Positions 691 through 23,800 of a DNA stretch of 64,000 nucleotides are shown here, in pieces. Source of the DNA: a virus; the IMG/VR virus record IMGVR_UViG_3300035670_000112, positions 23,418 through 87,417 of that record. One strand, written 5' to 3'. Each line of letters opens with the position of its first letter. The stretch's first letter is position 1. The translations under genes were made by a program, and so were the position numbers. The notes beneath the pieces are model-generated. The model was not told where the DNA came from, did no database searches, and saw nothing but the letters and a program-made list of their open reading frames with translations.

Positions 691-1293
691 ATGACAATTT
701 ACATCAAACACGCAGGAAATTCAAAACCATTGGAGGTTGATTTCACAGGCACGACATTCGGTGAACTCAAGGCAGCAGCCCCTCAGGTCAACTGGGAGAA
801 CACGAATGTCATCATCCATTCGACACGTACACAGTTGATCAATGACAGTTCATTGATCCCGAATCAGGACAATCTGATCCTGTTGGTGGTACCTGCACGT
901 AACAAGGCAGGTGCACTGCCATATGCCTCACTGAAGCGGAATGATCTCCTTTCAGAGGTCAGAACGATCATCTCACAGGATCCCAATGCCTCCTCATACT
1001 TCGGGAACTACCCTCAGATGAAGACGGCTGCGATCCTTTCCCTTCTGAACGGTTACTCGTCAACTGCTTCCACTTCAAGTGCAGATGAACCTCTCATCTC
1101 ATCGATCGATGAGTTCAAGGTCCTTGAGCAGAAGTACGTTCAGTTGGTCAATGCAGTGAGCGATCTCAACGCATCGTTGGGAGCACTCGGCAATGTGATC
1201 TTTTCAGAGCAGCCTGAGGAGAGTGTCGGAGGAGTGAAGCTCAGTGAGCTTGATGCCGACTTCAGTTTCTTTGAGGCATCCCTCAGAGGTTGA
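691..1293 (+). CDS. ubiquitin-like (beta-grasp) protein precursor with C-terminal extension
   Basis: aa 1-74 follow a beta-beta-alpha-beta pattern (TIYIK, LEVDF, TTFGELK, LILLVVP) ending ARNKAG74; followed by a helical extension of about 125 aa; directly upstream of E2, JAB and E1 genes. Confidence 0.65.
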   Translation: MTIYIKHAGNSKPLEVDFTGTTFGELKAAAPQVNWENTNVIIHSTRTQLINDSSLIPNQDNLILLVVPARNKAGALPYASLKRNDLLSEVRTIISQDPNASSYFGNYPQMKTAAILSLLNGYSSTASTSSADEPLISSIDEFKVLEQKYVQLVNAVSDLNASLGALGNVIFSEQPEESVGGVKLSELDADFSFFEASLRG

Positions 1294-1308
1294 TGGTATA
1301 CCGATATG

Positions 1309-1351
1309 ATGGAAGGGGAGGCACAGGTTGCCTTCCTTTCCATTTTTTTTT
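1309..1351 (+). terminator. intrinsic terminator after the Ubl gene
   Basis: ATGGAAGGGGAGGCA-cagg-TTGCCTTCCTTTCCAT stem followed by a run of T. Confidence 0.8.
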
Positions 1352-1377
1352 ATCATTCACAGAAAAATCCATTGACA

Positions 1378-2439
1378 ATGAAAGTATTCAGAATATATTC
1401 AGAGAGGTATCAGCAGCATTTCCATTTCAAGGGGGATGGCTTCACTGCAATGCAGACGGATCTGCAGGATTTCGGGAATGACGCGGAGTTCATTGACCTT
1501 TGGAGACAGGACGACACGGACATCATGATCTTACATGCCCCCTATCAAAGGTTATTGAAGACGGTCCATGACATTCTGGAGACCGCTGATGATCAGAAGG
1601 ATCTTTCCATAATGATCAGGTCATATCCCCAACAGGAACTGTATATAACCATACGGATAGGTGATGTGATCACAGACAATTCCCTTGAGATAGGCAATCT
1701 CATAAAGGATGTGTACATCATACAGCAGATGACTCTCTCCAGAACGGGATACAGATTGAATAAACCTCTGATGAGAAGAGGTACTTACAATGACCTTGAG
1801 ATCATGAATGAGTTCATACATCCCCATTCATCGAGGGAAGGCGTAATGTGTCTTGGGAACTCTGAGTTCAGTAGAGCCTATTTTAACAGAGTGATATTCA
1901 GGTTCGACATGTTCGAATATCTGATGTACCTCAAGGCATATCTGTCATGGGAAAGTCTTGAAGGGGGTCCTTACAGAAGGACGCATGAGTATTATGACAA
2001 CAGTATCGGTGTAAGGCCTAAGGTTCTCAGTGAGGGAACCATCGACAGTATCCTTAAAAGGATCGATCCCACAGGGTTCAGACCAAGGGTGGATATCTCA
2101 TCCTCATCGATGGAGATCAGGATAGAGGAGAGTGCCGTAAGGGAAATGTTCATTGCAGAAGGCGTACCGATGGCATCGCTTCATGGTAAGATCCCATCCA
2201 CGGAAAGCTTGAGTGATATCCCAAGACATGAGGTGTTCTCCAAACATCTTCTCCTAAAGATAAGATTCAGGGACGTTGAGATCGTTCCCCAGAGTGAAAG
2301 GTTCGATCCAGAGGTGTACAGGGAATATCTTGACAGCGTGTTCTCCTATGTTCCCAGTATCTACATAAAACAGTTGGAACACAGACTTCAGAGTGAACTT
2401 ATAGCAACATCACCAGAATTCAAATATGAATTGATATGA
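1378..2439 (+). CDS. E2/UBC-like conjugating enzyme domain protein
   Basis: FIHPHSSREGVMCLG resembles the E2 HPN...C active-site signature, followed by YLSWESLEGGPY; start moved from 1306 to ATG 1378 because 1306-1351 overlaps the terminator. Confidence 0.65.
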   Translation: MKVFRIYSERYQQHFHFKGDGFTAMQTDLQDFGNDAEFIDLWRQDDTDIMILHAPYQRLLKTVHDILETADDQKDLSIMIRSYPQQELYITIRIGDVITDNSLEIGNLIKDVYIIQQMTLSRTGYRLNKPLMRRGTYNDLEIMNEFIHPHSSREGVMCLGNSEFSRAYFNRVIFRFDMFEYLMYLKAYLSWESLEGGPYRRTHEYYDNSIGVRPKVLSEGTIDSILKRIDPTGFRPRVDISSSSMEIRIEESAVREMFIAEGVPMASLHGKIPSTESLSDIPRHEVFSKHLLLKIRFRDVEIVPQSERFDPEVYREYLDSVFSYVPSIYIKQLEHRLQSELIATSPEFKYELI

Positions 2440-3524
2440 AAGACACAGTAAAGACAAAGAAATACCCAGTGATAACAACCCCTTTGAGAGGGAGGATACT
2501 GATACCTGGTGGAGTGAAAAGAAAGATCGATCAACTCCATAGGAGCATCGGTAATGTGGAGTGGGCAGGATTCATAACCTATGAGAAGACAGCAGGATCG
2601 ATGTCAGTACCCAATGAACTTGTTCTCAAGGTACTGGACATATATCCCATGTCAATAGGCACACATTCCTATGTGGAGGCTGATAATCATGCCGATGACA
2701 TGTTGGACCTGTGTGACCGTGTACCGAGTTTCATGGGGTCCAGATACGGACTTGTGCATACACACCATACGATGAACACCTTCTTCAGTGGAACGGACAT
2801 CGATGAACTGCATGACAACGTGGACAAGTATTCCTCATACCTGTCACTCATAGTGAACATGAAGGATGAGTATACCGCAAAGATCGTCAGTCTTGTGGAC
2901 GTATCACCTAGAATGGTATCCATAAAGGAGGAGGATGAGGAGACACGGAGTGTACAGATAGGTGACGACACGGTACAGATGCTCATGGTCGACCTTGATG
3001 TGTCCATTGAGAAGGAACATGAGGACGATCCTGTGATATCACTCAGGATAGAGGAGCTCAGAAAGAGGAACAGAGAGAAGGAGACGGACTCTCAGAGATC
3101 CGTATCACCTACCTCAGGGACTGTGAGGACATCTTCTCCCCCTGTTCAGACAAGGTTCCCTTTCGACACATTCGACATGCCTATGACACATCATTATTCC
3201 GTGAACAGGTTCAATGCTGAGGTATATCTGAAAAGACTTCTCAGTCTTGACGATACGGTAGGCAATGTGGATCTCTACTCACTCCTGTTGGAAGAAGCAA
3301 GGGATGCCAATGACTACCCTGACTATATCGATATCTACTACGGGGAGATCGCAGAGGAATGCTATAACATGGCAATAAAGATGGTCGGAGGTGAGAAGGC
3401 CGATGAACTCATAAAGCTTGCAGTGGAAAGACTTTCCGACTATGAGAAGGACCCCAATGTCAGCCCTGTGGTCGCCAATGTGAAGCTGATAATGTCGTCC
3501 ATACTCAATGTACCCTCACTATGA
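2436..3524 (+). CDS. JAB/MPN+ (JAMM) metalloprotease
   Basis: VEWAG glutamate plus HTHHTMNTFFSGTD, an exact H-x-H-x7-S-x2-D JAMM motif; ATGA overlap with the E2 gene. Confidence 0.85.
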   Translation: MKDTVKTKKYPVITTPLRGRILIPGGVKRKIDQLHRSIGNVEWAGFITYEKTAGSMSVPNELVLKVLDIYPMSIGTHSYVEADNHADDMLDLCDRVPSFMGSRYGLVHTHHTMNTFFSGTDIDELHDNVDKYSSYLSLIVNMKDEYTAKIVSLVDVSPRMVSIKEEDEETRSVQIGDDTVQMLMVDLDVSIEKEHEDDPVISLRIEELRKRNREKETDSQRSVSPTSGTVRTSSPPVQTRFPFDTFDMPMTHHYSVNRFNAEVYLKRLLSLDDTVGNVDLYSLLLEEARDANDYPDYIDIYYGEIAEECYNMAIKMVGGEKADELIKLAVERLSDYEKDPNVSPVVANVKLIMSSILNVPSL

Positions 3525-4195
3525 AGACAGCACACATAAGATTCAACAGTGTCGACTGGTACGGTATACCCAAGGAGATGACCGTAGGAGGTGCAGGTAC
3601 CATAGGAAGTTGGCTTACCCTTCTGTTGGCAAGGTCTGGTGACCACGACATCATACTCTATGATGACGATACTGTCAGTGAGGAGAACATGGCAGGACAA
3701 CTGTACGGCAGGTCGCATGTAGGCATGCCGAAGGTGGAAGCGATGAAGGATATTCTGAACGGACTTGTGGACATGTCTGGCAACATAAGGCTGGACATAT
3801 ACGGCAAGAGGATACAGGAGGGCACTTACGTGTCCCCTGTATGTTTCTCGTGCTTCGATAACATGAAGGCAAGGAAGGACATGTTCAACAACTGGATGAA
3901 GAGGGATGACAGGGAACTCTTCATAGACGGTAGGATGAGCATTGAGACCTATGAGGTCTACACCGTAAGGAAAGGACAGGAGAAGGAGTATATGGAGACA
4001 CTGTTCGATGACTCCGAGATACCTGATCAGATATGTTCGCTGAAGGCAACATCACATACAGGGGCACTCATTGCTGGTAGGATGATGAGCATGTTCACCA
4101 ATCATCTGGCGAACAGTGTCTCAGGAATGGACATCAGATCGGTACCATTCAGCTTCAGAGAGGATATGGAATATCACATGATAACAACAGTATAA
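3521..4195 (+). CDS. ThiF/MoeB/E1-family adenylyltransferase
   Basis: GGAGTIGS nucleotide-binding loop, YDDDTVSEENMAGQ, GMPKVEA, CFDNMKAR, IDGRM; candidate catalytic Cys in DQICSLKAT; ATGA overlap with JAB. Confidence 0.9.
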   Translation: MKTAHIRFNSVDWYGIPKEMTVGGAGTIGSWLTLLLARSGDHDIILYDDDTVSEENMAGQLYGRSHVGMPKVEAMKDILNGLVDMSGNIRLDIYGKRIQEGTYVSPVCFSCFDNMKARKDMFNNWMKRDDRELFIDGRMSIETYEVYTVRKGQEKEYMETLFDDSEIPDQICSLKATSHTGALIAGRMMSMFTNHLANSVSGMDIRSVPFSFREDMEYHMITTV

Positions 4196-4554
4196 TGGAA
4201 ATAGTGGAATATGTTCCCAACAGGGAAAGATGGTCTGATGCTCCGAGGGTCAATGATGTTCAGATAGAGGGTGCAACATGTGTATCCCCGCTGTTCAAAA
4301 GTTACACGGTCAATTACAACTATGACAATGGACTGTTCGTAAAGGACCCTCATGTGGAAAATGTGATGCGTAACGTGGTACTCGCAGTATCGACAGGAAG
4401 GACGTTCAAACAGCTTCTGTATGAGGTGAGCATGCGACTCGACAGGTCATTGGATGACAGAGTAGGGAGAGAGACCTTTGCAAAGGTCATAGTGGAAGAG
4501 AGGATATCAGGGATATTGAACAGAATAAGGACAGAGAATGAAGGACAGGAATGA
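4195..4554 (+). CDS. hypothetical protein, translationally coupled to E1
   Basis: TAATG stop/start overlap with the ThiF gene. Confidence 0.6.
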   Translation: MEIVEYVPNRERWSDAPRVNDVQIEGATCVSPLFKSYTVNYNYDNGLFVKDPHVENVMRNVVLAVSTGRTFKQLLYEVSMRLDRSLDDRVGRETFAKVIVEERISGILNRIRTENEGQE

Positions 4555-5596
4555 TTATTTCAATTCAAGCGGTGTATCAAGGAGTCTCCTTGTAAAGCTA
4601 CTGGATCACCCCAGAAAGGTGAAGATGATGATGGACGGAGTCTATGCGGATCAGACCTCAGATGCACTTGAGAAGGGATCTGCATTCGATTCGCTCATGT
4701 TCGACACGCGACAGGAGTTCAACTCAAAATACCGTATAGCGGCAACAGCGAATCCGTTCCCTCAACGCAACACCAACAAGGGGAAGTTCGCATGTGAGTG
4801 TGAATCCATAGTGAAACAGATGATAGAGGCCGATGAGTTCTTTGACATCGATAATGTCTACGTGAAGGCCTATGCGGACTCTGGTATAAAGAATCCAGAT
4901 ATCAGAACCTCCATAAAGGAGTTCGAGGAAGCTGGAGGGAGAGCATATCTTGAGGAACTCTACGCCAATGCGAAATTCATCACGCTCTCTCAGGAGGAAT
5001 TCAACGGTCTGTCGGCCATGAAGGAGTCTCTGATGTCCCATGAGAACATCTCACATTTCTTCTGTGACAGTGTACCAGAGGATCATAGGGTGCTCAAAGG
5101 GAATGATGAGATGCTGTATCAGGTGGATGTAAGATGGCAGCAGGAGGATCTTGAGTGCAAGGCACTTCTGGACATAGTGTCGATAGACCATGAGAGAAGG
5201 GTCATAACAGGGATAGACCTCAAGACGACATCCTTCACATCTGCGGATACCACAGGCTCGATATTGAAGTTCAACTATCACTATCAGGCAGCATGGTACC
5301 GTCTTGCGTTGGAGGCATTCGCTGCTCAAAGATTCGAAGGATTGGACTATACCGTAAGTGATCAGTTCCATTTCATATTCGTCTATACGGACACTCTGTA
5401 CCCTCCCACGATATTCACCATGTCATCACATGACATGAAGTGTGCACGTGATGGGGGTCATAGATATGGAAGACCTGTCAAGGGTATCTGTCAACTGTTG
5501 AGCGATCTGAAATGGCATATTGACCATGATGCGTGGGACTATTCAAGGGACACCTATGAGAACGGTACCCTGATCTCCACCATCTATGACCGTTGA
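4538..5596 (+). CDS. PD-(D/E)XK exonuclease (RecE/ExoVIII, DUF3799-like)
   Basis: SRSLL, GSAFD, KALLD...IDLKTT, YHYQAAWY motifs. Confidence 0.8.
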   Translation: MKDRNDYFNSSGVSRSLLVKLLDHPRKVKMMMDGVYADQTSDALEKGSAFDSLMFDTRQEFNSKYRIAATANPFPQRNTNKGKFACECESIVKQMIEADEFFDIDNVYVKAYADSGIKNPDIRTSIKEFEEAGGRAYLEELYANAKFITLSQEEFNGLSAMKESLMSHENISHFFCDSVPEDHRVLKGNDEMLYQVDVRWQQEDLECKALLDIVSIDHERRVITGIDLKTTSFTSADTTGSILKFNYHYQAAWYRLALEAFAAQRFEGLDYTVSDQFHFIFVYTDTLYPPTIFTMSSHDMKCARDGGHRYGRPVKGICQLLSDLKWHIDHDAWDYSRDTYENGTLISTIYDR

Positions 5597-5598
5597 GC

Positions 5599-6444
5599 AT
5601 GGAAGGCATCATAAAGGCGACACAGGTATTCGCATCCATACACGTTCAGTTCGCTGTGAACTGCAATGTGACCGATGTGAAGGATGACAGGGGCTCTGTG
5701 ATCACTGTACTTGACAGTAATGGAAGAAGGCTGATCACTCTTGGTGATCTTCTGTACGTGAAGGACCATGGTTGGTATCAATGTAACCGTATGGACCGTT
5801 TACGTGTAAGTGACGGACATGCCATCTACAGGGTGATAACCGCTGAAAGGTCGGACACGTCACTTCTACTTCTTCCTATGTACGGAGGTGACAGAGAGAG
5901 CTTCAGGTTCTCAGACCTTCTGGTGAATGCCTATTGTTTCAGGGAGGGGTTCTCTCCAGGTAGAATATGGCTGCTGTACAGGATACCTCACAGTGATGAG
6001 GATGTCCTTACAGATACATTGGACAGTATATCGAAGAATCCATGGTATCTCACACATGAGAGTTTCGGTACTGAGCATATCGTGGTCACGATGTCCATCC
6101 CTGATGGGCATATCGACACTGTCCATAGGTTCTTCAGCGGAAAGTTCTCAAAGTTCACTCAGGAGTACAAGGAGTCGATATACAGATTCCATAATATCAA
6201 TGACAGATACAACAGACTCAGACTCGAGCTGGAAAGACATCCTGTTCTCAAACAGAGAATGGAGACGGATCTTTCCATCACGCTCGGTGATGAGGATGAA
6301 CTGAGGTCTGCAATAGTGGAGGATAGGGAGACACTTAAGGTATCCATGCTGATAGATGAGCAGAGAACTGGTATTGAGAAGCATCGTAGGGGAACAATGG
6401 TTCAAGGCACTCTACGGTCACATGATGTCAAAGGAATTCGATGA
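5599..6444 (+). CDS. conserved phage hypothetical protein
   Basis: Long ORF with FFSGKFSKF motif that I recall from crAss-like replication regions; ATG at 5599 preferred over TTG 5593. Confidence 0.55.
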   Translation: MEGIIKATQVFASIHVQFAVNCNVTDVKDDRGSVITVLDSNGRRLITLGDLLYVKDHGWYQCNRMDRLRVSDGHAIYRVITAERSDTSLLLLPMYGGDRESFRFSDLLVNAYCFREGFSPGRIWLLYRIPHSDEDVLTDTLDSISKNPWYLTHESFGTEHIVVTMSIPDGHIDTVHRFFSGKFSKFTQEYKESIYRFHNINDRYNRLRLELERHPVLKQRMETDLSITLGDEDELRSAIVEDRETLKVSMLIDEQRTGIEKHRRGTMVQGTLRSHDVKGIR

Positions 6445-7060
6445 CCTTGGGCATTTCATAATTGAGGAAAGGAAGAGATACAGGGTATTCCCTGCTCAGA
6501 AGGATGTGTTCAATGCATTCAGATCCACACCTTTCCATGATGTGAAGGTGGTATTCCTGGGGCTTGATCCTTACATACGTGAGGGTCAGGCCACAGGGTA
6601 CTCATTCGGTGTCGACATCGATACTGCGATCACAGTACCTCCATCATTGAGGAACATCATCAGAGAAGTGGAGAGTGACCTTGATGTCCTGTGTCTTGAG
6701 TTCGACCATTCATTGAAAGGTTGGGCACAGCAGGGGGTACTGCTGTTGAATACCGCACTCACGGTCAGAGAGGGACAGACAGGTTCACATCTTCTCCAAT
6801 GGAGCGGATTCACTCAGAGTGTACTGAAGGCATTGAACGATAAAGGGGACAATGTGATCTTCATACTGTTGGGAAAGGATGCCCAGTCGTATGCAAAGTA
6901 TCTTGACCCGTCAGTGACGAAGGTGATAATGGCACCCCATCCTGCAGCGGAATCGTATGCAGGGGGGAAAGCAGGATTCTTCGGTAGCAGGATATTCAGT
7001 AAGTGCAACAGCATGCTGTACATGCTCGGAAAAGAAGAGATAAATTGGAATATAAAATAA
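6356..7060 (+). CDS. ung: uracil-DNA glycosylase (family 1)
   Basis: VKVVFLGLDPY, PPSLRNI, WAQQGVLLLNTALTV and HP motifs. Confidence 0.92.
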   Translation: MSRELVLRSIVGEQWFKALYGHMMSKEFDDLGHFIIEERKRYRVFPAQKDVFNAFRSTPFHDVKVVFLGLDPYIREGQATGYSFGVDIDTAITVPPSLRNIIREVESDLDVLCLEFDHSLKGWAQQGVLLLNTALTVREGQTGSHLLQWSGFTQSVLKALNDKGDNVIFILLGKDAQSYAKYLDPSVTKVIMAPHPAAESYAGGKAGFFGSRIFSKCNSMLYMLGKEEINWNIK

Positions 7061-7983: not shown

Positions 7984-8229
7984 ATGGCGAATTTCTATAA
8001 CATACAGGGTCAATGTGCAGCTTTTGTGGCTGGTAGACTCAGTGACCTTCAATGGAGGAACATATCTCATGTGGAGAGAGATGGAAAGCAGTGTATACTG
8101 CATATGAAGAATGGGGATGTATATGAACTTTCAATTAAAAGAAGAGAAGATGAAAGAACCGATGCCTATGCACTCTTGCATAAGAGTGTGGTTGGAGAAG
8201 ACATCGACCCGAAAACCATCAGTTCCTGA
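7984..8229 (+). CDS. hypothetical protein
   Basis: ATG 7984 just after the terminator/promoter. Confidence 0.55.
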   Translation: MANFYNIQGQCAAFVAGRLSDLQWRNISHVERDGKQCILHMKNGDVYELSIKRREDERTDAYALLHKSVVGEDIDPKTISS

Positions 8230-8665
8230 ACTGATGACAAGGGAGGATGCCGACTTCAACACGATGTTGATAAGAGAGGAAGTGAATGAGCTTCTGTCCG
8301 CACTGTCAACGAATAATGACCTTACAGAACTGTGCGATGCATATTTCGATGTGCTCTGGGTGGTCACCCAATCAGCAATGCTGAACGGGCTCAATATAAA
8401 CGACCTCTGCAGAGCGGGCTTTTACAGCAACATGTCAAAGTTCTGCAACACATACGAGGAGGCACTTGATACTGTGGAAGCCTACGCCAAGGGAGAACAT
8501 CCTGCAAAGTATGGTACACAGATCGAATGTAGGATAGACGAGAACAGGGATGGGAGTTTCACTGTAAAGAGAGCATCCGATTCCAAGATACTCAAGTCGA
8601 TCAATTTCAAAGAACCTGATTTTTCATTCATAGTACAGAGAGCAAAGGAACATGGGACAGTGTGA
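8111..8665 (+). CDS. MazG-like all-alpha NTP pyrophosphohydrolase
   Basis: LIREEVNEL...ELCDAYFD...SNMSK pattern; true start may be slightly downstream. Confidence 0.75.
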   Translation: MGMYMNFQLKEEKMKEPMPMHSCIRVWLEKTSTRKPSVPELMTREDADFNTMLIREEVNELLSALSTNNDLTELCDAYFDVLWVVTQSAMLNGLNINDLCRAGFYSNMSKFCNTYEEALDTVEAYAKGEHPAKYGTQIECRIDENRDGSFTVKRASDSKILKSINFKEPDFSFIVQRAKEHGTV

Positions 8666-9212
8666 AGAGTACTTCAAAGGTGATGAGCTTGCAGTTTCAG
8701 TATGGCAGGGTAAATATGCTGCAGATGGGGAGATCACCCCTGATGACATGCATAGACGCATGGCAAAAGAGTTTGCAAGGATTGAAAAACAGTATTCTGA
8801 TTCTTCAGAACCCTGGGAAATAAGAGTTGTAAAGACTGAGAATCTGAGCAGATACGGAAAAGATAGAAAACCTCTTGTAGAAAGTGTGATATACGATCTG
8901 TTCAAGGATTTCAAGTACATAGTACCTCAGGGTTCCATTATGTACGGGCTTGGAAGGAATGATAAGTACATCTCATTGAGCAATTGCTTTGTCATTGATT
9001 CAGCAAAGGACAGTTATGGAGGCATCTTCAAGACCGAACAGGAGCAGATCCAATTGATGAAACGCAGAGGAGGTGTAGGTCATGATATCTCAAACTTACG
9101 TCCTGAAGGTACTGCAGTGAGCAATTCAGCGGGAACATCAACAGGAGTGGTCTCTTTCATGGAAAGATTCTCCAACGCTACAAGAGAGGTTGCTCAAGCA
9201 GGAAGAAGAGGT
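8652..9212 (+). CDS. nrdJ: class II (B12-dependent) ribonucleotide reductase, exon 1
   Basis: SLSNCFV, KRRGGVG, GVVSFM, AQAGRRG; frame continues into exon 2 after splicing. Confidence 0.88.
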
Positions 9213-9578
9213 AAATAAAAATGTGCCTCAAAACTATGTGAACCTATAAATATAGGGTGTCTGAGGAGATTCAGGCTAACGGTGGAAACTATAATTTTGC
9301 CAAAAAATTATAATAATACCGTGCTAAGCATTTGTATATTTATGTTTTTGTTAGAAGGAAGAAGAAATAATCCTATTCCAAAAGGTAAAAGAAAGGGATT
9401 GTTCTTTGAGTATACAAATGAAAGTGTAACGACTATCGAACGGGTAACTGTCACAGTTGACAGTGAGTAACCAAGTAGAGTACATTTAAGGTGAAATTCC
9501 TTAAGTGGAAGCGCATAGGTGAGTAGAAACGTAGTTCTACTTGAAGATATAGTCTAAACGTGAAGAAATTCACTTTTG
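9213..9578 (+). mobile_element. group I intron (IA-like), 366 nt, in nrdJ
   Basis: 5' exon ends in U; P1 GAGGT(9208-12)/GCCTC(9225-29) with U.G at the splice site; P3 CTATGTG/CGCATAG; P7 GACTAT(9431-36)/ATAGTC(9549-54); P9 GTGAA-gaaa-TTCAC; terminal G 9578; splicing restores GRRG|ALML. Confidence 0.9.
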
Positions 9579-20879: not shown

Positions 20880-23800
20880 TACTGACAGGTTCTTTTCTGG
20901 TTACGCATCATTTCCTTGGTCTCATCTGGAAGAGCATTGAACTCCTCCTGAGTTATGTTGTTCTCTTCCATTATCATCATATCGATGTCTTCATTGGATA
21001 CAGAAGTGAGGGTCACATCTGCACTGACCTTCTTTGTTGTTACAGGAACCTTACTCTCCTTCAGTTCCATGATCTTTTCGAACATGCTCTTCACGTTCTT
21101 CCCTGAACCTATACGTTCCCTCAACTGTTGAAGTTGTTCTGGACTCAATCCCTGTATGCTCTTGAACAGAGGATGTGATATCATCGCTCCTTCCAAAGGT
21201 GCTATACTGTCAATGTCGAATCCTGGAAGTATATCGGATATTGTCAATACCGCCTCTGCCGCATCTACAGGTTTCACTGCTCTATCCTTTATCCTTGTAG
21301 GGGTGGCAGAGGGTTTTCTGGTGGAAACTATCTGAGTATATGTCATGGTATCGGACATTGCATTGTCATAATTGAACTCAAGGAACTCATTGTTTGAACC
21401 CAACAGAGGTACTTCCCTGTATATGGCATCATCCCTTTCGATAGAGTGGAACACCATCAGTGCCGACCTCATCTGTCCTTTCGTCTTCAATACCGTCCTT
21501 ATGAACTCCAACGGTTGCTTCTCAGTGTTATTGACCTTGTTCAGAGGTACCTTCACATATGTCACTCCCTCACTTACCATGAAGATACTGTCCGCATTAC
21601 TGGTATCGAAGTACTTGATGAATGGAAGACTGCGGTACATGTTCCTTATTATCTGAGAGGATATCTCCTTGGATATATTCACGGATCTCTCATCATCGAA
21701 CATGTTCCTATTGAACTGATTCTCCATATACTGTGTGAAGTATATGCCGTTATCGTCCTTCAATTCTGCCCAGTACATGGTAGGCAGAATGTCACTCAGC
21801 TTGCTCGGAGAGGTCACGAACCCTGTTGCAAATATGGAATATGCTGCAATGTCGTTCGCAAGTGATGATACTTTGGGATCCACATCACGCAACATTGAAA
21901 GGAACTCCATCTTGATAGACTGCATCTGTGTCGCATCGATACCTGTACGGTTCATCCTTATCACCTTCATACCTGATACATTCTCTGAGGGGATGACGTT
22001 CAGATACTTCAACAGTGGGATATAGGGGCTTTCAGGGTTCTCATTCATGAAAGTTGTAATGGCAGTCGGGGTATCATTGATCACCCGTTGGAACTCAGAT
22101 GCTCTGAAAGGTCCGAATGATGATGCCAGTGCTGATGATATCGCATAGTGCATAAGGTTGACCGTCTCTGGCTGTATCCTCTGTCCCAATGGAAGGGAGG
22201 CCTTCATAGCATTCTTGACCGTATGATAGATGGATTCACCATATCTGTCGGTGTAAGGTATGCCAGTTGAATTGTATATGTCTGCCAAGGATGCCTCAAG
22301 TCCTCTCTCTCTGAATGCTGCAGACCATCTGATAGGGTTGGACTCCACCATTGAAAGGAGTTCTCTCACCCCGTAAACGATGCCTAACTCCTCAGCATTG
22401 AGTATGGTATCGACATCATCGAGTTTACTGAGCGTATGTGCAACTGTCGGACCAGCGGCATTCTTGATGGAATCGTATCTCATTGCACGTGTCATAGGTG
22501 CAACAACACCTGTCGACACCTCTGCAACCCTTTTGAGCAACCTGTAGACGGCAAGTGAATTGACAAGTTCCAGATCGGTCATTGCCGATACATCCTTTTC
22601 ACCCATCTTCACAAGGTCCATTATGCTTCCTGTGCGTGTAGTAGGATCGAACTTCAATGCCTTTGTGCTCAAGTAGTTCACCATTTCATCATATGCAGCA
22701 CGTCCCCGTCTTCTGATATACTCATCAGTGATATCATCCATACCTGAAAGGTCGAGTCTGTCCACGGAACGGGCTCCTTTGGTAGCTCTGATGACCTGTG
22801 GAGTATTGAAGAACAGTACAGATGCCTCAAGGCCGAAACCCATTCTGACAAGGGTGGCTATCATATCAGCGGTCACCATGGTTATATTGAGGAATGATGC
22901 CACAGGATCCTTTCCGTTATCTACCGCAGCCGCAAGGAACTCCTTCAGCTTCACAAGGTCATCGAATGTGGTACCTTCGTCCTTTCCACTCAGACTTATC
23001 TTCTCCATCCCGTTGAATTTCAAAGGATATTTGAGTGTTACGTTACCTTGCATGACAAGTGCCTGATTGGACACATGGTTTGCAAATATACCGATAAGTC
23101 CGTTACCCGTCATATTCCTTTCAAATACTTCCCTTGAGGTTGAGTTCAACAGAGGGTTCAGAGTGTCGGTACCCATGGAATCCTTCTCGGTCTTTTTCGG
23201 GGAAACCTCCTTTACAAGTGCCTTGAGCGTCTCAAAGCCTCCAGGAGTGGTTATCTCCTTTGCAGTCCTTGCATCTGAGAGTACAGAGAATGCAATGTCC
23301 AATTTCAGATTGTCCCTTGATGCCTTTGTTTCCATCCCTGATGGTACCTTTCTGAGACTGTACTTTCTGAATGTACCCGTATCCTCATCAAAGGCAATTC
23401 CTTCCTTATTGGCAAATTCCCTACGTGAACGGAGTTCATCGAAGTCTGGGATCTCCTTCCTTACGATATCCCTCTTGAGTTTGGAAGACCATTGCATGGT
23501 CGATATGTATGACTGGAATCTCTCCTCAGCACCTTCCACCTCTGAACTGTACTCCTCTATGTTGTAAAGGATACCGTACAGTTTATCGATGTCAAAGTCA
23601 AGACCTGCTATCTTGGTGGCCTCCTCTGGAAGGATGATCTGCCCCCCTACACCCTGTGGAAGGAAACCTATGATCTTGATATGGAACATCGAATACTTGT
23701 GCTCTGTAGGTATACGGTAGAAGACTGCTTTCAGTATATCAGGGTCCACTCCCTCTATCTTCGATATGTCTATGATACCATTCTTGTCGGCATAACGTTC

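Follow-up and report, generated by a model that had tools for sequence, protein, structure and literature searches.

The window analyzed in this work, i.e., the whole stretch of 64,000 nucleotides, comprises positions 23,418 to 87,417 of the 87.4-kb IMG/VR virus record IMGVR_UViG_3300035670_000112, which represents a phage of the Bacteroidota host group, akin to the crAss-like gut phages. Close to the beginning of the window, four separate open reading frames (ORFs), all located on the same (+) strand, form a cassette in the order: putative precursor of a ubiquitin-like (Ubl) protein (ORF200, positions 691..1293, stop codon included), E2-like protein (1306..2439), JAB/JAMM peptidase (2436..3524), and minimal E1-like adenylating enzyme (3521..4195). 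The precursor, which is the main subject of this work, consists of 200 amino acids (aa) (21.6 kDa, isoelectric point (pI) 4.7) and is composed of a predicted Ubl domain (aa 1-74; 691..912, +), ending with N-K-A-G, and a C-terminal part, referred to below as the passenger (aa 75-200; 913..1290, +; 13.5 kDa, pI 4.3). The reading frame and its 200-aa product, quoted in a first-pass annotation made from the letters alone, were borne out by the sequence. The glycine proposed there as reactive, G74, is indeed internal (codon GGT, 910-912), and all of the segments described downstream of it are present, i.e., the helical stretch YASLKRNDLLSEVRTII...YPQMKTAAILSLL, the Ser/Thr linker, and the tail ELDADFSFFEASLRG.

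ORF200 is a real gene, since HMMER, run in full over 1.84 billion representatives, gave 57 protein matches (E ≤ 1e-3; one of them spurious), mostly of 145-310 aa, and since syntenic copies are present in related phages; a word-indexed search retrieved three relatives. One of the matching proteins (P0014, 3183 aa, 13 matched stretches) was considered as a possible poly-Ubl and rejected, as it is an Ig-repeat surface protein in which weak matches add up. No significant match to ORF200 was found in Pfam, PHROGs, NCBIfam or PADLOC, and the Pfam families ubiquitin, ThiS, MoaD and Lambda tail I were not matched even at E ≤ 1. None of the 55 homologues used for the family alignment matched any of these four families at E ≤ 0.01, and the Pfam scan across them gave just four chance matches, each in one member. 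The tblastn search with ORF200 against the phage collection returned nothing at E ≤ 1e-3; the homologues encoded by Flavobacterium phage FpV4 and by Bacteroides phages DAC15 and crAss001 were located via the E1 gene and synteny.

The alignment of homologues, proposed in the first-pass annotation as the way to decide between G74 and the terminal L-R-G200, favors the internal glycine. Within the 55 sequences (mean column identity 17%), G74 is the sole invariant column (55/55), which makes it the predicted scissile and activated residue. It is preceded by Ser (25 members), Ala (22), Gly (6) or Asn (2), so that one of the three small residues is found in 53/55 sequences, while the position -2 is occupied by Lys in 47/55, giving the motif K-[S/A/G]-G. 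At the +1 position Ala (22), Ser (11) and Gly (6) account for 39/55 homologues. The small residues flanking G74 resemble the G|A site cut by the BilC peptidase of bacterial Bil operons. Another Gly-Gly pair, G179-G180 (1225..1230, +), located in a small hairpin (aa 178-183), is invariant in the closest subfamily of 13 sequences only, and not family-wide.

The AlphaFold2 model of the precursor, built with the 55-sequence alignment (mean predicted local distance difference test (pLDDT) 91, predicted template modelling (TM) score (pTM) 0.68), revealed a beta-grasp fold in residues 1-68, with pLDDT of 95-98 across residues 1-70. Searching of the PDB with Foldseek matched the N-terminal part with ubiquitin, NEDD8, ISG15, the DWNN domain and DIX domains, and the matches to ubiquitin, NEDD8 and ISG15 had TM scores by target of 0.65-0.73 and a root-mean-square deviation (rmsd) of 2.1-2.6 Å over about 78 columns. 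VIA-align, which is independent of Foldseek, gave Z of 6-7.6 across residues 1-70 (64-70 residues aligned, rmsd 1.8-2.6 Å) and placed model residue 74 at the last residues of ubiquitin-type chains. On the strength of these three results, the modeled N-terminal domain is assigned as ubiquitin-like, with G74 at the position of the ubiquitin C-terminus. In the model, this glycine lies six residues beyond the strand 61-68, within a dip of confidence (residues 71-80) separating two well-modeled domains. Among the structures of the BFVD database, the matches to the whole precursor were proteins of crAss-like phages and of Fpv3.

The passenger, which belongs to no known sequence family, begins with a small helical domain (aa 81-128; 931..1074, +), modeled with pLDDT of 94-97 and composed of helices 83-96, 100-104 and 112-128; its family consensus is ..M.R.EL...VK......AK.HFGNY..LST..L..LL..Y. 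By impression, this domain may be similar to a helix-extended-helix (SAP-like) motif. It is followed by the Ser/Thr-rich linker (aa 123-136; 1057..1098, +), where pLDDT drops to 63-76 and a second dip of confidence (residues 129-140) is observed, and by a long helix of 33 residues (aa 139-171; 1105..1203, +), assigned with DSSP. The first-pass annotation described a coiled coil in this part; in the monomer model the long helix packs within the monomer. Downstream of the hairpin 178-183, a C-terminal amphipathic helix with the acidic-aromatic tail (aa 184-200; 1240..1290, +; helix 184-199 in the model) closes the protein. The tail motif [T/S]-x-x-[E/D]-L-[D/N]-x-[E/D]-[Y/F] recurs in many family members, and the tails of crAss001 gp79 (..EINKMFDFVD) and DAC15 gp048 (..EIDDMFSFVGR) are alike and related to that of ORF200. 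Searching of the ESM Atlas with residues 75-200 gave no usable match, and in the Foldseek and VIA-align searches with the complete model the Ubl domain took up the results, with the passenger barely covered.

The part following the conserved glycine is variable in length (7-237 aa, median 118 in the 55 members) and none of the family members terminates at this residue (0/55). The Ubl part is better conserved than the passenger in 94% of the sequence pairs (median identity 29% versus 18%). Several members (L002-L004 and P0004/P0008) are 144-aa forms without the small helical domain, in which the long helix and the tail are kept. The first three of them (L002:5992-6426, L003:5992-6426 and L004:5989-6423) are located on related marine or viral contigs, and the Ubl parts encoded by these three related viral contigs are 64% identical to that of the window. 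It was also observed that a 211-aa member (P0006) combines the helical domain with the tail sequence of the 144-aa form. The shortest member (P0056, 82 aa, on a 103.6-kb contig) has K-V-A-E-L-L-A alone after K-A-G; its genomic context was not found among the viral or metagenome contigs.

The peptidase of the cassette (362 aa, +) has the predicted catalytic residue E42 (2559-2561) and the motif H108-x-H110-x7-S118-x2-D121 (2757-2798). None of these residues (E42, H108, H110, S118 and D121) varies in any homologue spanning it, i.e., the JAMM motif is complete. The protein has also a C-terminal extension of about 190 residues (aa 176-362; 2961-3521) with no family match, whose length and sequence vary among the homologues, and which could be a substrate- or passenger-binding domain.

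The E1-like enzyme (224 aa, +) is a single domain matching Pfam ThiF (PF00899) in residues 21-190 with 57.6 bits (cut-off 28.1), with the Gly loop encoded at 3590-3610 and an invariant C172 at 4034-4036. By sequence, it is nearest to the single-domain adenylating enzymes of the ThiF, MoeB, TcdA and MccB types, and its PADLOC matches were to Cap2-type "E1-E2" models only, confined to the E1 nucleotide-binding stretch. Within seven E1 sequences, residues R7, G24, G26, D48, D50, N56, Q60, K71, D113, N114, R118, D136, R138 and C172 are invariant. Relatives of this enzyme were detected in 79 phage records, including 29 of Flavobacterium, 29 of Bacteroides and 12 of uncultured phages (those inspected were crAss-like), as well as a few of Xanthomonas and Erwinia, in which the genomic context differs. 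The E1 homologue of the Xanthomonas jumbo phage PhiXhv-15 (L011:4929-5612, 30% identity) lies between the gene of an 892-aa protein and topoisomerase genes, and the Pfam scan, the only one performed here, indicated no family in the three adjacent proteins. In view of its different neighborhood, this locus was not counted as the same cassette; an E1 of this type is used differently there.

The second gene of the cassette encodes a 377-aa protein (+) with an invariant cysteine, C182 (1849-1851), in the context H-S-H..C-L-G..W-E-S-L-x-G-G-P-Y. Residues N125, H174, C182, G184, E216, S217, G220 and P222 are invariant in 20 homologues. Its AlphaFold2 model has a mean pLDDT of 53.5 (65-80 in the core 82-234 and below 50 in residues 1-57). 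When the model was compared using VIA-align, about two-thirds of the best 50 matches were, by title, E2, UEV or RWD domains (Z about 5-7.6), e.g., Cap2 (Z 7.0), UFC1 (6.8), UBE2E1 (6.7) and the Tsg101 UEV (6.5), as well as Citrobacter BubB (Z 6.0, rmsd 3.0 Å over 103 residues), while the E2 matches found with Foldseek were weak (E 0.04-0.2). The Pfam scan and the PDB profile search were negative for this protein, the Prok-E2_D hidden Markov model had no match in five phage records, a lead from the ESM Atlas to Prok-E2_D covers 14% of one cluster, and a single-sequence homologue search retrieved the protein itself alone. We assign it, with moderate confidence, as an E2-like protein with a putative UBC/RWD-type fold in its core.

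Directly 3' of the precursor stop codon, a G+C-rich, terminator-like hairpin of 16 pairs followed by TTTTTTT (1308..1351, +) was indicated by a consensus scan; it should be treated as a lead only, as shuffled sequences give no fewer such sites for the region as a whole. Since the first 24 codons of the 377-aa ORF are overlapped by the hairpin (and the model confidence is also low there, as given above for residues 1-57), the true start of this gene is probably M25, at position 1378. Read-through into the genes of the enzymes could be attenuated by this hairpin.

The order of the four genes is kept in eight further records, i.e., the IMG/VR contigs L002, L003, L004, L006 and L007, and phages FpV4 (gp53-gp50), DAC15 (gp048-gp051) and crAss001 (gp79-gp76, where gp77 is annotated as "metalloprotease" and gp76 as "ThiF"). 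The first cassette gene of all eight encodes K-[S/A]-G at approximately residue 75-95. No description of this cassette in crAss-like or Flavobacterium phages was found in the literature, whose coverage here was incomplete.

In the window, the cassette lies within a module of genes for recombination, repair and nucleotide metabolism. Upstream of it, genes of a RusA-like resolvase (42-407, +) and a small ORF (411-677, +) were identified. The downstream region comprises a small ORF overlapping the E1 stop codon (4195-4554, +), a PD-(D/E)XK exonuclease assigned to the exonuclease VIII PHROG (4538-5596, +), an ORF with no family assigned (5593-6444, +), a uracil-DNA glycosylase (6356-7060, +) and a MazG-like ORF (8111-8665), followed by a class II ribonucleotide reductase ORF (region 8652-9218 and about 9213-9578), which stops abruptly after ..GRRGK. 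In crAss001 and FpV4, largely the same genes surround the cassette, differently arranged. The slot directly after the E1 gene is conserved, and its sequence is not: the small gene 4195-4554 has no detectable similarity to the same-slot genes of L003 and L006 and hence was not counted as a cassette member.

Taken as a whole, the locus makes it likely that ORF200 is the obligate precursor from which a ubiquitin-like modifier of the phage is made, and which is probably cut by the JAB peptidase after G74 into an 8.1-kDa modifier and the 13.5-kDa passenger. According to the proposed mechanism, the peptidase would cleave between G74 and A75, within the flexible hinge (residues 71-80), freeing the Ubl ending with ..NKAG and the acidic helical passenger starting with ALPYASL. 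The newly exposed Gly carboxylate would then be adenylated by the E1, and the Ubl would be moved via C172 of the E1 and C182 of the E2-like protein to lysines of target proteins, be they from the phage or the host, in the replication phase. The uncut fusion would keep the modifier inert, and the JAB may also undo the conjugation. Maturation of the Ubl by the JAB, anticipated in the first-pass annotation, is thus supported by the invariance of G74, the complete set of JAMM residues, and the precedents of BubAB/BubCD and BilA/BilC, and the cleavage itself is what we infer from them.

Several observations weigh against this reading. The match of the peptidase to Pfam Prok-JAB is sub-threshold (17.8 bits versus the cut-off of 25; E 0.0032). 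In the E1, the NLxRQ motif (aa 56-60) reads NMAGQ, and seven phage homologues all carry the Gly instead of the Arg, which, together with the invariant N-terminal R7, suggests an altered ATP-binding arrangement; moreover, this enzyme has no separate Cys domain. The assignment of the E2-like protein is based on a low-confidence model with middling Z values and no sequence-family match. An invariant Gly placed after a beta-grasp domain could, in principle, be structural. Finally, neither biochemical nor proteomic evidence was found that ORF200 or its relatives are cleaved, charged or conjugated.

If ORF200 were never cut, its N-terminal part would be an integral UBL domain docking non-covalently on the E1, the E2-like protein or the JAB, which would act on the C-terminus of another substrate. 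Integral UBL-domain proteins are well known in eukaryotes (e.g., BAG1 and Rad23), and Cap2 and Cap3 act on CD-NTases in the anti-phage signalling system based on cyclic oligonucleotides (CBASS). Such a possibility is in line with the presence of residues following the Gly in each of the 55 members, with the conserved motifs of the passenger and its confident modeling together with the Ubl (pTM 0.68), and with the fact that AtBAG1 (4hwi), of similar architecture (a UBL followed by a helical domain), is among the Foldseek matches of the precursor model; cleavage is so far only predicted. However, integral UBL domains are not known to keep the terminal glycine, whereas here, at a mean column identity of 17%, the Gly is the sole invariant residue and is flanked by small residues. 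The passenger, in turn, shrinks to 7 aa or loses a whole domain, and in the 144-aa forms the Ubl and the three enzymes stay. No other substrate gene is conserved in the cassette, given that the gene following the E1 is not. Since the single invariant Gly and the dispensable passenger would be left unexplained, we regard a permanently uncut protein as unlikely.

Another possibility assumes the cut at G74, with the Ubl acting as a sulfur carrier of the ThiS/MoaD type instead of a protein tag, adenylated and thiocarboxylated by the E1 for thio-modification of nucleotides, DNA or tRNA. This would fit the affinity of the E1 to the ThiF, MoeB, TcdA and MccB types, the neighborhood of genes for the uracil-DNA glycosylase, the exonuclease, the MazG-like protein and the ribonucleotide reductase, and the existence of JAB-associated ThiS/MoaD operons (PMC1779556). 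Nevertheless, a conserved E2-like protein with an invariant Cys is encoded between the Ubl and JAB genes, as in the Bil operons, the E1 is devoid of a rhodanese domain, and the search of the 87-kb record at E ≤ 1 gave no domain of the rhodanese, PP-loop ATPase or cysteine desulfurase type (the record is 86% complete and the host could supply such a protein); a role in sulfur transfer thus appears quite improbable. The activation of the terminal L-R-G200, with conjugation of the whole 200-aa, possibly oligomeric protein, which the first-pass annotation put forward as its alternative, can practically be dismissed. Gly is the last residue of 6/55 family members, i.e., the window protein and five others, including P0030, which also ends with ..SLRG. 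The closest relatives (48-51% identical) terminate with ..AVRL and ..AINL, and the syntenic 144-aa forms with ..FLGK and ..FLNR. In addition, the C-terminus of the model is where a helix ends, in place of a free tail following a beta-grasp. This activated end was rejected because the terminal Gly is not conserved, while G74 is invariant.

Returning to the precursor cut after G74, the released 126-aa piece is probably a functional second protein, delivered 1:1 with the tag, rather than mere packing, because it carries conserved motifs of its own. A more specific proposal, which we offer tentatively and hold to be doubtful at present, is that the passenger, instead of being a disposable pro-peptide, might act in the replication module as an adaptor, acidic and helical, docking through its conserved C-terminal helix and supplied 1:1 with a phage-made tag, and that crAss-like and FpV4-like phages might have independently reached the logic of the eukaryotic ubiquitin-ribosomal fusions and run their own tagging pathway on targets of the host or the phage in the course of infection.

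Conjugation of Ubl proteins in bacteria has so far been studied as anti-phage defence (Bil, Bub, and Cap2/Cap3 of CBASS), and the cassette described here shows that phages carry the same kind of kit. Its carriers include the cultured phages crAss001 and DAC15, as well as FpV4, a phage of a fish pathogen, and the crAss-like group is among the most abundant human gut viruses. Provided that the tag is cut and conjugated, protein modification by these phages takes place in the course of infection, and replication control, host takeover or counter-defence could be the purpose. The question of conjugation is testable in existing culture systems by means of the invariant K-[S/A]-G tail, which offers a direct way in: trypsin would leave Ala-Gly (+128.06 Da) on the modified lysines in the case of this phage and Ser-Gly (+144.05 Da) in the case of crAss001.

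Comparison with known systems may start from eukaryotic polyubiquitin and the ubiquitin-ribosomal protein fusions, in which translation never yields the modifier with its Gly free, and the ribosomal passenger is a working protein. The first-pass annotation likened the second polypeptide released from ORF200 to these fusions, and this holds as an analogy only. The passenger bears no relation to ribosomal proteins, and the precursors of the bacterial Bub and Bil systems are closer in kind. An archaeal example is the ubiquitin precursor of Caldiarchaeum subterraneum, which is reported to be cut by CsRpn11 (PMC6043591). In both eukaryotic and archaeal precursors a dedicated peptidase (JAMM in the archaeon) exposes the Gly, as is proposed for ORF200, and there is no detectable sequence relationship between them and the phage protein.

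Among the bacterial systems, the Type I Bub operons (formerly 6E.1) offer an experimentally proven case, in which the BubAB Ubl-E2 fusion is cut by the BubCD JAB domain directly behind the conserved Gly, as was demonstrated by Edman sequencing (Ye et al. 2024, PMC11601596). As in ORF200, the Ubl is translated there with a large C-terminal passenger and the JAB is encoded in the operon. The Bub passenger is, however, an E2, the JAB is fused to the E1, the catalysis involves an oxyester, and a serine protease of the DUF6527 family (BubE) is present, whereas the phage-borne cassette has a helical passenger without a Cys motif, and its E2-like protein, JAB and E1 are encoded by separate genes, with conserved Cys residues. 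DUF6527 had no Pfam match in the eight neighboring proteins scanned, the search for this family being confined to them and not extended to the rest of the record.

The gene order of the phage cassette is the same as that of Bil (BilABCD), i.e., Ubl, E2, deubiquitinase (JAB) and E1. BilC cuts BilA at G97|A98 and also cleaves Ubl fusions with green fluorescent protein (Chambers et al. 2023, PMC10557695), and the divergent Bil E2 was first recognized only by its conserved Cys, His and Glu residues (PMC10557695). On the other hand, the extension of BilA is one residue, compared with the 126-aa passenger of ORF200, BilD is a large E1 with the IAD-AAD-CYS architecture, compared with the single 224-aa adenylation domain, and Bil is a host defence system, while the phage cassette is located in a replication module.

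Mobile elements and phages have provided two other relevant cases. In the PRTRC systems (operon class 6d), a stand-alone JAB (with JAB-N) and a ThiF-like E1 accompany a small Ub-like (beta-grasp) protein on mobile elements, similarly to the cassette. Unlike ORF200, the PRTRC Ubl is described as small, with a C-terminal Gly; the E1 of the window scored 31.2 bits with TIGR03736 (PRTRC), far from the cut-off of 144.75, and the PRTRC models of NCBIfam had no match in the other three cassette proteins. The tail assembly protein I (TAPI, lambda gpI), found in lambdoid as well as T1-like phages, is a phage Ub-like domain protein adjoining the TAPK JAB, for which cleavage at a Gly was predicted (Iyer, Burroughs and Aravind 2006, PMC1779556). 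It shares with ORF200 an N-terminal Ub-like domain with a conserved Gly, a linker, a small C-terminal domain and a neighboring JAB, but it belongs to tail-assembly clusters, has no E1/E2 partner, and no Pfam match links ORF200 to it. In the light of the Bil, Type I Bub and TAPI precedents, a Ubl that is made as a precursor with a passenger of considerable size and is matured by the JAB of its operon is of a kind already known; what sets the present cassette apart is the helical passenger, which belongs to no known family and is not the E2, the minimal E1, the E2-like protein, separate and divergent, and the location in a phage replication module instead of a host defence island.

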